A stretch of 64,000 bases of DNA from Candidatus Thorarchaeota archaeon (lineage in GTDB: Archaea; Asgardarchaeota; Thorarchaeia; Thorarchaeales; Thorarchaeaceae). A model generated the notes under the pieces. It searched no databases. It worked only from the letters and a program-made list of their open reading frames with translations, and was not told the origin of the DNA. The DNA lies in assembly GCA_048882045.1 (NCBI GenBank), contig JBHLRZ010000006.1:1-64000 (forward strand). The letters are read 5' to 3'. The position numbers were made by a program, and so were the translations under genes. Numbering within the stretch: the stretch's first letter is position 1; each line of letters opens with the position of its first letter. Of the stretch, positions 12,057-17,762 are shown in pieces.

Positions 12057-12941
12057 TTATCTCAATTTTAGAATTTTAGCGATATTTGCATTTGAATCAA
12101 TTATTGGATCAATCAGTCCTCTTGTTGATGTGAATAGAGTCGTTACGCCTGGACCGTGACCAGAGATTACACAATCACTGTGTACAACGATACCTACGGA
12201 AACAGCATCCTTCTTGTAGATTCGGCCATAGGAATGGTCGGCATCAATGATTGCTACTAGGTCTCCGAACCTCAGGTCCTCAAGTCCATATTCAGCAGTG
12301 GTTCCTTCATCAAAGAGCTGAATGTCATAGTCTCCAGAGTATACTTGATCCGCACCTAGTCCTGAACCCATTATTTTCGCTGGGACTAAGTGTGTGACTG
12401 GGATTCCCAGTTTATCGCCGCTGTCTTGGAAGTTAATTTTCTTGACAACTCCAGGGTCAATGTTCATTACTTTGATATCAGGATAATCAAGAAGCTCTAG
12501 ACCTTGCCCGTAAGCCTTGATCATCATCTTGTCACCGATAGCGAGTTTCTCCATTGTTTCCTCAGAGAAATCAACCATGACATGTTCTATACCACCATGT
12601 TTGCCAACTACTGTTCCAACCTCGTCTTTTGCATCACTTTTACCAATCACCTTGGCCTCGTTACCTACACAAGCGAGCACATTCAAGGATGTGTTTGCAG
12701 CTGTCTTGAATCTAGCATCATTCTCTTTGTTCTCAATACTCACACCGGGTTCGACATGGTCAGCTTTCCAGCCTGTGGCCAAATCTCCAACGCGAATGTT
12801 GTATGTGATTCCACCTACACCAGGCAGTGAAACAGGTCTTCCATCATGTGTAATTCGGTATGGTGAGCGCGCTACAGGACTCGCGACCTCACCCATTACA
12901 GAAATCTTCACAATTTTACTTTCGTTCGTTTTGACTTGCAT
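12057..12941 (-). CDS. DUF4438 / TM1086-like conserved protein
   Basis: PGVGGITYNIRVGD..GW.ADHVEPGVS, CVGNEA, KHGGIEHV, MGSGLG, GDYDIQ, GHGPGVT motifs recalled for this family. Confidence 0.8.
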   Translation of the reverse strand: MQVKTNESKIVKISVMGEVASPVARSPYRITHDGRPVSLPGVGGITYNIRVGDLATGWKADHVEPGVSIENKENDARFKTAANTSLNVLACVGNEAKVIGKSDAKDEVGTVVGKHGGIEHVMVDFSEETMEKLAIGDKMMIKAYGQGLELLDYPDIKVMNIDPGVVKKINFQDSGDKLGIPVTHLVPAKIMGSGLGADQVYSGDYDIQLFDEGTTAEYGLEDLRFGDLVAIIDADHSYGRIYKKDAVSVGIVVHSDCVISGHGPGVTTLFTSTRGLIDPIIDSNANIAKILKLR

Positions 12942-13010: not shown

Positions 13011-13841
13011 TCATAGATGTTTTTCAAGCCACTTGAACATATCACTGAATACTTCCTCGCCACCTTCCTCGTGGTATGGTTCATGATACAGCCCAGGATA
13101 TAGTTTCCAAGTTTTGTCCTCAGAAGCAATATTATCGAAAAACTCCTTGTTCCGATCAGGATCAAGAATCATGTCATCTCCGGATTGCTGGACCAACACC
13201 GGAACTGTGATTCTACTTGCTGATTCAAACGCTTCTTTACTGGCTTTGAGTCCTTCAATAGCATACCTAGGTGTCGCCTTGTCAAATCTAAGTGGATCCT
13301 CTCGATTGTCTTTGACAATATCTGCATTCCTCGATATCAATTCATGATCGAGACCATTGTCAATGTACATCTTCACATTCAGCTTTGACAGGAAAGCTCC
13401 CATTTTTCTCGTTGCAGCACTAACCTTGAGTCTCTCTGAAACTGCGGGAGCTGGGATAATGATTCCTTCAGCCTCACCCGGATGTTTCAGAATATAATGG
13501 ATTATGAATATGGCACCTAGAGAGTGACCCCATAGAAACAGCATCTTGTCTTGATGAAGGAGTTTCAAATAGGCGACCAATGATTCCATATCCTCAGTAT
13601 ATTCATCAAAACTCTCAACATGACCCTTACGACCAGGAAACGTACCAAAACCTCGCATATCGGGGGCGTAGAAAGTATATCCCTGATCGGTGAATCTTTC
13701 GCCCATGTATTCTAAACGACCACTGTGAGACCCCAATCCGTGCAAACCAAGTACAATTGCCTTGGGGTTTCCTTCTGGTTTCCAGATTCTCAATAACATT
13801 GTTGTGCCATCGAATCCCTGGTATGTACTCTCTTCGCTCAT
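13011..13841 (-). CDS. Alpha/beta hydrolase, lysophospholipase/monoacylglycerol lipase type
   Basis: LHGLGSHSGR, DMRGFG, nucleophile GHSLG, Asp in SGDDMI, His in YPGLYHEP. Confidence 0.9.
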   Translation of the reverse strand: MSEESTYQGFDGTTMLLRIWKPEGNPKAIVLGLHGLGSHSGRLEYMGERFTDQGYTFYAPDMRGFGTFPGRKGHVESFDEYTEDMESLVAYLKLLHQDKMLFLWGHSLGAIFIIHYILKHPGEAEGIIIPAPAVSERLKVSAATRKMGAFLSKLNVKMYIDNGLDHELISRNADIVKDNREDPLRFDKATPRYAIEGLKASKEAFESASRITVPVLVQQSGDDMILDPDRNKEFFDNIASEDKTWKLYPGLYHEPYHEEGGEEVFSDMFKWLEKHL

Positions 13842-13893: not shown

Positions 13894-14703
13894 TCAGGAA
13901 TCTTGTTCATCAATAAATGCGAACTTCTTGTTCGGATAGTCAATAACAGTTTCATACTTCCTCAAGAAGTCGTAACCAATGATACCGTTCTCAATCAACT
14001 TTCCTTTGGGAGAAACACGTCCTAGATCGATGACAACCAATTGTGTATTTGCGATCATGGATTTGCCAACCGCTAGTGAGTCACATGGAGCAAGCTCCAA
14101 CGGAACATCACCACCAACACCTCGAGCAACCCCCTCCACTGCTTGAGATTGCAGCCCTAATTTCTTCGCGAGGGATGGTGTAACACATGAGTTACCAGCA
14201 CCTGTATCTAGAACGAAATCATATGGCCCATGACCATTGATATGAACGGGGATTCCCACAAGATGTGATTTATTGACATACTCAAAAGGAATCCAATCCA
14301 GATCAGGACTGGAATTCCCTTTACTCAGTTTGAATCTCTGTTTATTGTAGCTGAGTGACATTGTGCAATGTTTCAACGTGGTATATCCCAGAACACCATC
14401 TCGGTTTCCGCAACTAAGAATTTTGTCGAGGTCTAGAACATAGACTTCATCCTGTTCAAAATCGAGGGGACCGACACTGATAGAGGCATCAGCAAAGAGT
14501 GTGGGTACTCCCCCACCTAAGCCACGAGCGTCAGGTCGACCACTCTGCCTTGTAGGAATTCCCAGTTTCTCCGCTAATCCCACAGTCAGAGTGGTAGTCG
14601 ATGCCCCGGTATCTAGGTTGAAAGTGAAGGGGCCTTGCGAATTAACATGAACTGGGATTTTCACAAGACGTGTACTAGGTTCAATCTCGACTTCGAACTC
14701 CAT
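13894..14703 (-). CDS. Tandem two-domain retropepsin-like (clan AA) aspartic protease
   Basis: Two homologous halves, each with FxLDTGA, a flap ARG(L/V)GG and G(V/I)(L/I)GY; SD GAGGTG before ATG 14703. Confidence 0.88.
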   Translation of the reverse strand: MEFEVEIEPSTRLVKIPVHVNSQGPFTFNLDTGASTTTLTVGLAEKLGIPTRQSGRPDARGLGGGVPTLFADASISVGPLDFEQDEVYVLDLDKILSCGNRDGVLGYTTLKHCTMSLSYNKQRFKLSKGNSSPDLDWIPFEYVNKSHLVGIPVHINGHGPYDFVLDTGAGNSCVTPSLAKKLGLQSQAVEGVARGVGGDVPLELAPCDSLAVGKSMIANTQLVVIDLGRVSPKGKLIENGIIGYDFLRKYETVIDYPNKKFAFIDEQDS

Positions 14704-14718
14704 GTCAAAACACCTCAT

Positions 14719-15543
14719 TCACTCAGGCTTTGTACCAGCGATATATGCGCTGTAAGCACCATAGATGCTGTTTCCTGCCTTACTTGTGATTTTGGCATCA
14801 TTGAAACCAGCATCACGCATATGCTGCAGATACTCCTCATCGAGGATGGCTCCACCAATGCATCCAGTATAGGTGATGACTTGATCACGAACATCTTGTG
14901 GTAGTGGTTTTGAGAGCACTATATCTGAGACCATGACTCGACCACCTGGTTTCAGAACTCTGTAGGCTTCTCGGAAAACTTTCCCCTTGTCAGGGGCCAG
15001 ATTGATTACGCAGTTGCTTATCACAACATCAACCGAATTGTCCTCAACTGGCATATCTTCAATATCACCATATCGAAACTCAACATTTGTTATCCCAAGT
15101 TCCTCAGCGTTTTGTTTTGCTTTCTCAATCATGGCTGGGGTCATATCTACTCCAATGACCTTTCCAGAGTCACCTACTTTCTTACTAGCCACGAACATGT
15201 CGAGACCAGCACCACTTCCCAGGTCAAGAACAACCTCTCCTTCCTTGAGACTTGCCAATGCGACTGGATTACCACATCCAGCGAACGATTCTGTGGCTCC
15301 GGTTGGCATACCTTCAGTGTCATAACCAAGTGCACCTGCAAGGTTTACTCTTGTGACCTTGGTTTCCTCTTGGGGACCACAACAACTCGAACTGGTCTGA
15401 GCAGGTGCGCAACCCGGATCACTGCAACTTGGTGTTTGCTCTTCAGCAGTCCATGTTCCTTCAGCAACACGTGAGTAGGCATCACGGACAGCTTCTTTGA
15501 TCTCGTCGGATTTCATTTCACTGACTTTCTTCGTATTAGCCAT
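14719..15543 (-). CDS. arsM: Arsenite S-adenosylmethionine methyltransferase
   Basis: GCGNP, LDLGSGAG.D, GVDMT..M, ISNCVINL, GCIGGA; Cys-rich N-terminal arm (SCSDPGC..SSCCG). Confidence 0.92.
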   Translation of the reverse strand: MANTKKVSEMKSDEIKEAVRDAYSRVAEGTWTAEEQTPSCSDPGCAPAQTSSSCCGPQEETKVTRVNLAGALGYDTEGMPTGATESFAGCGNPVALASLKEGEVVLDLGSGAGLDMFVASKKVGDSGKVIGVDMTPAMIEKAKQNAEELGITNVEFRYGDIEDMPVEDNSVDVVISNCVINLAPDKGKVFREAYRVLKPGGRVMVSDIVLSKPLPQDVRDQVITYTGCIGGAILDEEYLQHMRDAGFNDAKITSKAGNSIYGAYSAYIAGTKPE

Positions 15544-15547
15544 AGAA

Positions 15548-15709
15548 TCACCTTTTGTCAGATGTTGCTTTCACTGGTTTCGATGCGGATGAACCACAGC
15601 AACCAGTAGTAGGTTCTTGATTGTTTTGTCCTTCAGCTATGTTTGAGTAAGCTTCTTTCACAGCTTTCTTAATTTCGTCGGTTTTATTTTCACTAACCTT
15701 CTTCGTCAT
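15548..15709 (-). CDS. 53-aa microprotein paralogous to the ArsM N-terminus (not in ORF track)
   Basis: MTKKVSENKTDEIKKAVKEAYSNIAEGQNNQEPTTGCCGSSASKPVKATSDKR; SD GGTGA; its TGA lies within the arsM SD (AGGTGA). Confidence 0.8.
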   Translation of the reverse strand: MTKKVSENKTDEIKKAVKEAYSNIAEGQNNQEPTTGCCGSSASKPVKATSDKR

Positions 15710-15846
15710 ACAATCACCATATTGTTTGGATTATGATATTCCACTATGTCGTCAATACATTGTGACTGACATGTGAATCTAGACCTAGTTTTCTTACGTT
15801 TTTCAGAACTCGAAAGACTATCTTTGACAACTTTGTCTTCAGCCAT
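15706..15846 (-). CDS. 46-aa microprotein with CxxxC (not in ORF track)
   Basis: MAEDKVVKDSLSSSEKRKKTRSRFTCQSQCIDDIVEYHNPNNMVIV; SD GGTGA; ATGA stop/start overlap with the next ORF. Confidence 0.6.
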   Translation of the reverse strand: MAEDKVVKDSLSSSEKRKKTRSRFTCQSQCIDDIVEYHNPNNMVIV

Positions 15847-15860
15847 TCAATCACCAGACA

Positions 15861-15907
15861 TATTGGGTATCCAATACATCTTGAAAATATTGGAATTCCA
15901 ATATAAA
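15861..15907. promoter_or_regulatory. Tandem palindromic operators next to the TATA box of the arsM operon
   Basis: TATTGG-GTAT-CCAATA (15861-76) and perfect 18-bp ATATTGGAATTCCAATAT (15887-15904); minus-strand TTTATAT at 15901-07. Confidence 0.8.
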
Positions 15908-15955
15908 CCTTGCTTTCAGAGAAACAAGTAATGCAGATGAGATATTATTTATTAG

Positions 15956-15973
15956 ATATAGGACATTCAATAT
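15956..15973. promoter_or_regulatory. Degenerate third operator in front of padR (autoregulation)
   Basis: ATATAGGACATTCAATAT: two mismatches to ATATTGG-N4-CCAATAT, ending 6 nt before the padR ATG. Confidence 0.6.
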
Positions 15974-15979
15974 GTCATT

Positions 15980-16351
15980 ATGACAGAGCAATCCGATGAT
16001 ATACTGTGTTGCCCACCAGATTGTTGCGAAGGCTTAGCTAGAGGATTTCTTAATTTCCAAATTCTATGGGAGCTCGGGAAGGAGCATCTCAATGGTCAGC
16101 AGATAGCTGAAAGGATTGCGAAGAGAAGAGGTACAAAGCCAACTCCAGGTACAATATATCCAGCACTCAAAGAATTGAAGAAAGGGAAGTATATAGCTGG
16201 AACAAAGGAAGGACGTGAGGTCGTATACCGTCTGACAGCTAAGGGAGAAGACGCACTACTTGATGCATCCAAATATTTCCATCAGGCGTTTGGTGACATT
16301 GCTGAGGATGTCAAGGTGAAGGTTGTAGTAATCAGAAAAGAGGACTTCTAG
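15980..16351 (+). CDS. PadR-family winged-helix regulator with N-terminal CCPPDCC motif
   Basis: GFL...IL..L......G..I; PGTIYPALKEL; VYRLT.KG wing. Confidence 0.9.
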   Translation: MTEQSDDILCCPPDCCEGLARGFLNFQILWELGKEHLNGQQIAERIAKRRGTKPTPGTIYPALKELKKGKYIAGTKEGREVVYRLTAKGEDALLDASKYFHQAFGDIAEDVKVKVVVIRKEDF

Positions 16352-16486: not shown

Positions 16487-16786
16487 TTAGTATAGGGAGT
16501 TCATACTCACTGTCGATCTAGTATTTCTAAGCTCCCAATTATCAGGAATATCTTTCTTCGATAATTGATAGTAGAATTGAGGTGATCGACAACAAGTATC
16601 ACATGGACTTTGTTTCCAATAGTAGTACTTGGTGAGATGGTGGTTACAATTGAAGCAACCTTTAGCAACCTGTTTAACAACAGATTTGTTTTGTTTGGTC
16701 TCTCGATGAAACCGGGATTTTTTGGTGGGAGATAGCTCCTTCAAGACTCCCGGCGAGCTAATAGCAGCCTCATTTGTAGCACTCAT
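16487..16786 (-). CDS. Small basic protein with putative Zn-binding motif
   Basis: CFNCNHH...PCDTCC; Lys/Arg-rich; divergent from an RHH gene; start taken at ATG 16786. Confidence 0.55.
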   Translation of the reverse strand: MSATNEAAISSPGVLKELSPTKKSRFHRETKQNKSVVKQVAKGCFNCNHHLTKYYYWKQSPCDTCCRSPQFYYQLSKKDIPDNWELRNTRSTVSMNSLY

Positions 16787-16813
16787 GTATACCACCGTAT
16801 ACTTAATGTATAC
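16787..16813. promoter_or_regulatory. Three phased GTATAC boxes (probable RHH operator)
   Basis: GTATAC at 16787, 16797 and 16808 (10 and 11 bp spacing). Confidence 0.65.
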
Positions 16814-16862
16814 GAATTGTTAAATACTTGTCTATGAACTAGAATGGTTGGTTGAGCCTCGT

Positions 16863-17000
16863 ATGACTGATACAATGATTCGAATACCCAAAGCTCTTCA
16901 GGATCGGTTTGAAAAATTGGAAGTAAAGGATTCATGGAAATCCTTCCCAGCTTTTGTGAGAGAGGCTGTTCGACAGGCTCTCGACAAATATGAGAAGTAA
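16863..17000 (+). CDS. Ribbon-helix-helix (CopG/Arc/MetJ-like) DNA-binding microprotein (not in ORF track)
   Basis: MTDTMIRIPKALQDRFEKLEVKDSWKSFPAFVREAVRQALDKYEK: beta-strand T-M-I-R-I-P, helix A, S....FVREAV helix B. Confidence 0.8.
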   Translation: MTDTMIRIPKALQDRFEKLEVKDSWKSFPAFVREAVRQALDKYEK

Positions 17001-17156: not shown

Positions 17157-17762
17157 ATGCCACGTCCCGAACCTAAAACTAAGATTGAGAATGTCGTCGC
17201 CTCAGTCGTTCTCAACCAGCGTCTCGACCTCGATGAGATTGCTGCTACGATGCCCAACGTAGAATTTGACCCTGAACAGTTCCCAGGTCTTGTGTACAGA
17301 TTGAAGAAGCCAAAAACAGCTACGCTAATCTTCAACTCAGGCAAGATGGTATGCACAGGAGCGAAGAGTGAGAAAGAGGCGAAGCGTGCAGTTCACAAGA
17401 TTGTCAAGAACATCAAGGAGGCTGGAATCGAGATCTCAGGTAAGCCAGAGATCATTGTTCAAAACATTGTAGCCAGCGCAAGCCTTGGAGCAGAGTTGAA
17501 TCTCGAACTAGCAGCAATGAAACTTGAGAATACACTATATGAGCCAGAGCAGTTCCCAGGTCTAATATACAGAATGCGAGACCCGAAGGTTGTCATTCTT
17601 TTGTTCGGTTCTGGAAAGCTCGTCATCACTGGAGCCAAGTTTGAGCCACAGATTGATGAGGCTGCATTGAAGGTCATGGACCGACTCCTCGAACTCGGAG
17701 TCATGAGAATCCCAGAGGGTGAAGACTGGGGTTTAGAAGACTACGAAGAGGGCGAGTGGTAG
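17157..17762 (+). CDS. tbp: TATA-box binding protein
   Basis: Two direct repeats IENVVAS/VQNIVAS and PEQFPGL(V/I)YR, LIFNSGK/LLFGSGK; acidic tail. Confidence 0.98.
   Translation: MPRPEPKTKIENVVASVVLNQRLDLDEIAATMPNVEFDPEQFPGLVYRLKKPKTATLIFNSGKMVCTGAKSEKEAKRAVHKIVKNIKEAGIEISGKPEIIVQNIVASASLGAELNLELAAMKLENTLYEPEQFPGLIYRMRDPKVVILLFGSGKLVITGAKFEPQIDEAALKVMDRLLELGVMRIPEGEDWGLEDYEEGEW

Follow-up and report, generated by a model that had tools for sequence, protein, structure and literature searches.

A cysteine-armed PadR regulator that probably forms, together with arsM, an ArsR-independent arsenic switch in archaea

We analyzed a 64,000-nucleotide stretch of a Candidatus Thorarchaeota genome (assembly GCA_048882045.1, contig JBHLRZ010000006.1, positions 1 to 64,000; here called the window) in which padR, the gene for a small PadR-family regulator with a cysteine-rich N-terminal arm, is divergent from an operon containing arsM, the predicted arsenite methyltransferase gene. 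The padR-arsM pair is probably an archaeal arsenic switch that is not built on ArsR; the family membership of the proteins, the pairing of the genes, the conservation of the operator, and the regulon are established here. An initial annotation of this DNA had proposed a dedicated PadR regulator of arsM with an operator that can be read from the sequence, and the gene pairing, the operator conservation, and the joint presence or absence of the elements across genomes all strongly support that proposal. The elements of the locus are as follows.

15980-16351, + strand: padR, encoding a 123-amino-acid single-domain PadR-family winged-helix regulator (PF03551)
16007-16027, + strand: codons of the CCPPDCC arm (residues 10-16), a flexible N-terminal arm directly before helix 1 and the proposed thiol sensor
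15956-15973: operator O3, ATATAGG-ACAT-TCAATAT, 2 mismatches, between the padR TATA box and ATG; proposed autoregulation site
15948-15955: padR TATA box, TTTATTAG, followed by O3
15901-15907, - strand: TATA box of the arsM operon, TTTATAT
15887-15904: operator O1, ATATTGG-AATT-CCAATAT, 0 mismatches, overlapping the TATA box of the arsM operon
15860-15877: operator O2, ATATTGG-GTAT-CCAATAC, 1 mismatch, downstream of the predicted transcription start and ahead of the Shine-Dalgarno sequence that serves the first open reading frame (ORF)
15706-15846, - strand: ORF for a 46-amino-acid microprotein whose SCQxSC motif and NPNxxVVI end are conserved
15548-15709, - strand: 53-amino-acid ORF, a separate copy of the N-terminal arm of ArsM in which a CCG motif is invariant
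14719-15543, - strand: arsM, encoding an S-adenosylmethionine (SAM)-dependent arsenite methyltransferase by family match
13894-14718, - strand: gene for a two-domain retropepsin-like aspartic protease (PF13650 twice, E = 7.8e-32)
13011-13841, - strand: gene for an alpha/beta hydrolase (Hydrolase_4, PF12146, E = 4.5e-63)

All three operators lie within the single 133-bp spacer between padR and the arsM operon, and the other matches to the palindrome ATATTGG-N4-CCAATAT in the window are four, each with 3 mismatches. The centers of O1 and O2 are 27 bp apart, as the initial annotation had claimed, and the degenerate third copy that it had seen before padR is O3. It had also placed both members of the pair between the operon TATA box and the first ATG, which is true of O2, but O1 overlaps the TATA box and is not wholly downstream of it. 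In an alignment with seven related spacers, O2, O1, O3, and both TATA boxes stood out as conserved blocks. The operator spacing of 27 to 28 bp recurs in loci L036, L047, L049, L050, L068, and L073, and other loci have exact-core sites near position −14 relative to padR. A transcription start about 25 nt past TTTATAT would place O2 just after the start and before the ribosome-binding site. On the other side of the spacer, the padR mRNA appears to be leaderless, because the ATG follows TTTATTAG and O3 and comes 6 nt after O3. The operator positions would be those of an archaeal repressor rather than an activator.

A genome-wide motif scan had been suggested as a check of the operator. Only 5 sites with at most 1 mismatch were found in the whole genome, all just upstream of genes, and a control scan with the reversed pattern returned 0 sites. 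Sites with 2 mismatches were regarded as chance matches, since most of them were inside genes. Two of the five sites precede the arsM operon, and the others precede the following genes.

G000 contig C44:21750-22097 (L008:4751-5098): orf115, encoding a 115-amino-acid protein; operator 18 bp before it
Contig C56: a DUF2284 gene; operator 32 bp before it
Contig C79: a nitroreductase gene followed by a Flavin_Reduct gene; operator plus a 2-mismatch site 16 bp away

Within the genus, the operator was present 24 to 34 bp upstream of orf115 orthologues (10 of 10), and two operators 16 bp apart were present at close nitroreductase orthologues (8 of 8). For DUF2284 the operator was conserved in just 2 of 12 cases, namely this genome and a close relative of it, and we did not retain it as a conserved regulon member; NCBIfam NF041536 describes a fusion of DUF2284 with ArsM. 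A complete Thorarchaeota chromosome has an extra exact site before its Flavin_Reduct orthologue, and in Hermodarchaeota a single cluster has Flavin_Reduct and arsM on one side and padR and the nitroreductase gene on the other. The orf115 product carries an invariant LWLEGWCDGC motif (CxxC) and had no match in Pfam, NCBIfam, or the Atlas; its AlphaFold2 (AF2) model (predicted local distance difference test score [pLDDT] of 72) had no significant match in the PDB. A thioredoxin-like identity, considered on account of WCDGC, was rejected given the absence of PDB and family matches. By its operator, orf115 is a predicted core member of the regulon and belongs to no recognized family. In a sister genome, we also observed two exact PadR operators 36 bp apart (G022:C177:5398-5449).

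Next, we looked into how the regulator, arsM, and the operator are distributed. A locus scan using one genome per species yielded 80 related archaeal loci from Thor-, Hermod-, Promethe-, and Bathyarchaeota, Methanomethylicota, Hydrothermarchaeales, Methanosarcinaceae, and Methanoperedenaceae. The divergent neighbor of padR was arsM in 73 of these 80 loci. The PadR was present in 32 of 121 sampled Asgard genomes, 31 of which also have arsM (adjacent to padR in 29); another 28 of the 121 have a longer type of arsM without this PadR. The spacers (16 kb) contained 67 exact TTGG-N4-CCAA cores and the flanks (728 kb) contained 15 (4.17 versus 0.021 per kb, an approximately 200-fold enrichment), and the outer TAT/ATA bases were almost invariant even though the scan did not require them. 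Exact operators numbered 0 in five same-family genomes without the PadR (each 91 to 98% complete) and 1 to 4 in four of five same-family genomes carrying it. The padR-arsM spacer was the only place with the exact operator in each of three whole genomes from other phyla. Among 81 Methanosarcinaceae genomes, one has the PadR, and there it stands beside arsM and the operator; the three elements therefore appear to move as a unit. Distant relatives (L103 to L105, from Methanoperedenaceae and a Methanobacteriota metagenome-assembled genome) are cysteine-armed PadRs divergent from genes for FMN_red, nitroreductase, and flavodoxin, with no arsM, and exact TATTGG-N4-CCAATA was absent from the one outgroup whole genome checked (Methanoperedenaceae, L105).

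The window PadR matched PF03551 in a Pfam search with 41 bits against a gathering cutoff of 27 (E = 1.9e-10), and the CCPPDCC reported for it is indeed present. We found 281 homologues, and an alignment shows CCPPxCC to be invariant in the full-length Asgard proteins; homologues from other phyla have variant arms (CCPx3-5CC, Cx4CPPxCC), yet the CC-D-M-R-G end is always kept. At a second cysteine site, most Thorarchaeota proteins end in D-C-x-C, those of Hermodarchaeota have a terminal Cys, and those of Bathyarchaeota have A-C-x-Y-F-C on the last helix. The N-terminal cysteine arm is thus the constant element of the family, since the second site is variable or absent. The AF2 model predicts helices at residues 19-34, 39-50, 56-68, and 87-110 and a wing of strands at 72-85, that is, a confident winged helix-turn-helix with a long C-terminal helix (core pLDDT, 82 to 95) and a disordered segment at residues 1-19 (pLDDT below 50). 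The PDB relatives of the PadR profile included 3elk, 5dym, 6qfd (hsRosR), and 5zhc (Rv3488). The ArsR/SmtB model NF033788 scored 17.5 bits against a cutoff of 55, and no match to the Pfam ArsR-type domain HTH_5 was listed at E values up to 0.1. The CopY/BlaI family (Penicillinase_R) scored 22.5 bits against a cutoff of 22.6, and its C-terminal CxCx4CxC motif is absent.

The operon of the 46-amino-acid ORF, the 53-amino-acid ORF, arsM, and the protease gene is divergent from padR and tightly coupled, in agreement with the initial annotation. The first two ORFs overlap by ATGA, arsM starts 4 nt after the second, and the protease gene follows arsM with no gap and is translationally coupled to it. 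Of the GGTG(A) Shine-Dalgarno sequences attributed to all four genes, GGTGAT is found 3 to 5 nt ahead of the ATGs of the first three; the likely start of the protease is Met6 (14703), which follows GAGGTG. The 46-amino-acid ORF had no Pfam or NCBIfam match and is conserved in 7 Thorarchaeota loci, with an in-frame stop in the L034 copy. The 53-amino-acid product matched NF008823 over positions 2 to 41 (E = 5.6e-6), and the N-terminal arm is also a separate ORF in L026, L027, L038, L041, and L054. The arsM product scored 318 bits with NF008823 against a cutoff of 263 (Methyltransf_31, E = 3.7e-42), and arsM was the sole gene above the NF008823 cutoff in the 3.6-Mb genome. The best PDB matches of the protein were the ArsM structures 5evj and 4fr0. 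It has cysteines at positions 54/55, 90, 178, and 228; those of GCGNP, SNCVINL, and TGCIGG align to 5evj, and the four ArsM cysteines are kept in 65 to 70 of 70 PadR-linked ArsMs. By its family model, SAM-binding fold, and four conserved cysteines, the window protein belongs to the ArsM/AS3MT family. The protease gene follows arsM in about 25 loci, all from Thorarchaeota. The alpha/beta hydrolase gene, 52 nt after the protease gene, shows conserved synteny across Thorarchaeota loci, and its membership in the operon is uncertain. Separately, we observed that the longer arsM of other Asgard families (G094, G117, G100, G077, G068, and others) often has one in-frame TAA or TAG within the family match, which may reflect a split-off N-terminal arm ORF like the 53-amino-acid gene.

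The same genome has a classical acr3-arsR operon on a different contig from padR-arsM (G000 contig C40:13492-14766; L106:1147-2502), and the ArsR encoded beside acr3 carries CQC in helix 3. The genome-wide scan found no PadR operator at this operon. Efflux and methylation therefore appear to be under separate regulators, with acr3-arsR having its own ArsR and no PadR site, and the description of the arsM locus as ArsR independent fits these observations.

We propose that the cysteine-armed PadR is a dimeric winged-helix repressor that, with its thiols free, would bind the 18-bp site (A)TATTGG-N4-CCAATA(T). At the arsM operon, O1 would cover the TATA box and O2 the transcription start region, so that the TATA-binding protein (TBP), transcription factor B, and RNA polymerase would be shut out. 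At padR, a repressor on O3, between the TATA box and the ATG of the leaderless gene, would provide autoregulation, and the same site would put the CxxC protein of 115 amino acids, the DUF2284 protein, and the nitroreductase/flavin-reductase operon under PadR. Arsenite [As(III)], methylarsenite [MAs(III)], or antimonite [Sb(III)] would bind the cysteines of the flexible CCPPDCC arm and reshape the arm beside helix 1; the DNA would then be released and methylation and the accessory proteins turned on, while acr3 efflux would stay with the separate classical ArsR. The conservation of the palindrome and its covariation with padR suggest a dimer on the palindrome and its release by a ligand, and the cysteine arm, the link to arsM, and the bacterial analogy described below make As(III), MAs(III), or Sb(III) a plausible effector. 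On the comparative evidence, we consider PadR very likely to be a palindrome-binding repressor of arsM, of its own gene, and of a small regulon. In the whole chain, including a trivalent metalloid as the effector, we have somewhat better than even confidence.

A metalloid-responsive PadR is already a known kind of regulator, since PadRars of Azospirillum halopraeferens Au 4 has been published as a PadR repressor of a trivalent-metalloid operon, as its title presents it (Zhang, Wu, Tang, Chen, Rosen, and Zhao, 2022, Environ Microbiol 24:5139-50, PMID 35880613; cited in PMC11566425 and PMC12817078). Its operator is quoted as CCTTGA-N11-TCAAGG (PMC12817078). The archaeal regulator is likewise encoded beside metalloid-handling genes, but the quoted operator is not TATTGG-N4-CCAATA; PadRars is bacterial, and its target, by the title of that study, is a resistance operon, whereas here the targets are arsM and flavoproteins. 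PadRars reportedly uses vicinal cysteine pairs; the archaeal family differs from it in cysteine placement, with the cysteines on the N-terminal arm of a 123-amino-acid single-domain PadR. The As(III) repressors of the ArsR/SmtB type (R773 ArsR, Acidithiobacillus ferrooxidans ArsR, and Corynebacterium glutamicum ArsR1) are similar in being small dimeric winged-helix proteins encoded next to ars genes, with vicinal cysteines as proposed As(III) ligands, and C. glutamicum ArsR1 uses an N-terminal cysteine pair; they belong to another family, as the NF033788 score of the window PadR indicates. The single-domain PadRs with structures (TA0346, 3elk; hsRosR, 6qfd; Rv3488, 5zhc; and LmrR-type proteins) are alike in fold, length, and palindromic target, but they are distant (E values of 7e-9 to 2e-5), and their matches to the profile leave out the cysteine arm, starting at about position 13 to 19. 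Those PadRs sense phenolics, drugs, oxidative stress, or Cd. A literature search on PadR with arsM, arsenic, or DUF2284 found nothing directly relevant.

Several observations weigh against an arsenic-sensing repressor. DNA binding by the window PadR, and repression, are predictions from sequence, and the window ArsM belongs to a short subfamily whose As(III) methylation is likewise a prediction. The exact core site is missing from 24 of the 80 loci. The second cysteine site of PadR varies or is absent in some loci, and the window protein ends in RKEDF, having lost the terminal D-C-x-C. The co-occurrence of such PadRs with ars genes, which the initial annotation had proposed as a check, was borne out for arsM but not for acr3 or arsR, either of which was found within 6 kb of the module in 1 of the 80 loci and in none of the other 79. 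Finally, the nitroreductase and flavin reductase of the regulon, and the FMN reductase beside the outgroup PadRs that lack arsM, would suit an electrophile- or redox-stress regulon just as well. This last point leads to the main rival explanation, in which the cysteine arm is a general thiol switch for oxidants, quinones, and electrophiles, in the manner of YodB, NemR, and RosR-type proteins, and controls a detoxification regulon of flavoproteins and a methyltransferase, with arsenic as at most one trigger. The regulon flavoproteins (nitroreductase and Flavin_Reduct) and the CxxC protein suggest it, the outgroup relatives paired with FMN_red, nitroreductase, and flavodoxin are consistent with it, and the oxidative-stress regulator hsRosR is among the PDB relatives. 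However, the neighbor in the 73 loci is an arsM with all four arsenic-binding cysteines, and two vicinal cysteine pairs are a typical As(III) ligand set, such pairs being established ligands in ArsR and ArsD. PadRars, moreover, responds to trivalent metalloids according to its title (PMID 35880613). We regard a general thiol switch as an unlikely explanation.

The cysteines might instead hold an Fe-S cluster or bind another metal (Cu(I), Zn, or Cd) in a cluster like that of CopY, in which case PadR would report on metal or redox status. Each monomer has four to six cysteines in CC, CxC, and CxxxC motifs, the match to the Penicillinase_R/CopY family falls marginally short of its cutoff, and the PadR relative Rv3488 is among the PDB matches and in NCBIfam. 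Yet none of the operators examined was followed by a copper, zinc, or iron gene, the CxCx4CxC motif is missing, and the link to arsM is overwhelming, so that we find this explanation improbable. It is more improbable still, to the point of being hardly credible, that PadR is a mere neighbor and some other factor, for example an ArsR from another locus, recognizes the palindromes. The genome does encode two ArsR/SmtB proteins over the cutoff and many weaker winged helix-turn-helix proteins, but the operator and PadR covary in presence across genomes, and PadR, arsM, and the operator travel jointly into unrelated phyla, as in the single positive Methanosarcinaceae genome. The operator also lies within padR's own promoter, and the acr3-arsR operon is without such a site.

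Outside the locus, we recorded these features in the window.

17157-17762: TBP gene, an archaeal feature of the window
16487-17000: a small ORF of the ribbon-helix-helix type, by a weak RHH_1 match, divergent from a basic, cysteine-rich 102-amino-acid ORF, just before the TBP gene
12057-12941: gene located downstream of the alpha/beta hydrolase gene and encoding a protein with both DUF4438 domains (E = 1e-55 and 1e-49)

Arsenic sensing in prokaryotes is taught as a matter of ArsR/SmtB proteins, and to our knowledge the control of arsM in anaerobes is poorly understood. Here, a proposed sensor motif, an operator, and a regulon can be recognized from sequence in a number of uncultured phyla of archaea, the Asgard archaea among them, and one genome appears to hold efflux and methylation under two different regulators. 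The predicted switch is directly testable, consisting of a 123-amino-acid protein and an 18-bp site, and might serve as a compact biosensor part. The regulon also ties unknown proteins to arsenic methylation: the 46- and 53-amino-acid cysteine peptides, the CxxC protein of 115 amino acids, DUF2284, and two flavoproteins. As a tentative extension, which we hold possible but doubtful, the archaeal cysteine-armed PadR may have evolved arsenic sensing on the PadR scaffold separately from PadRars, with which it would share only the fold, with a methylation-centered regulon (arsM, the cysteine microproteins, the CxxC protein, DUF2284, and the two flavoproteins) parallel to ArsR-controlled efflux, and its effector could be MAs(III) rather than As(III). 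If this were true, it would mean a two-channel arsenic response for anaerobic archaea.

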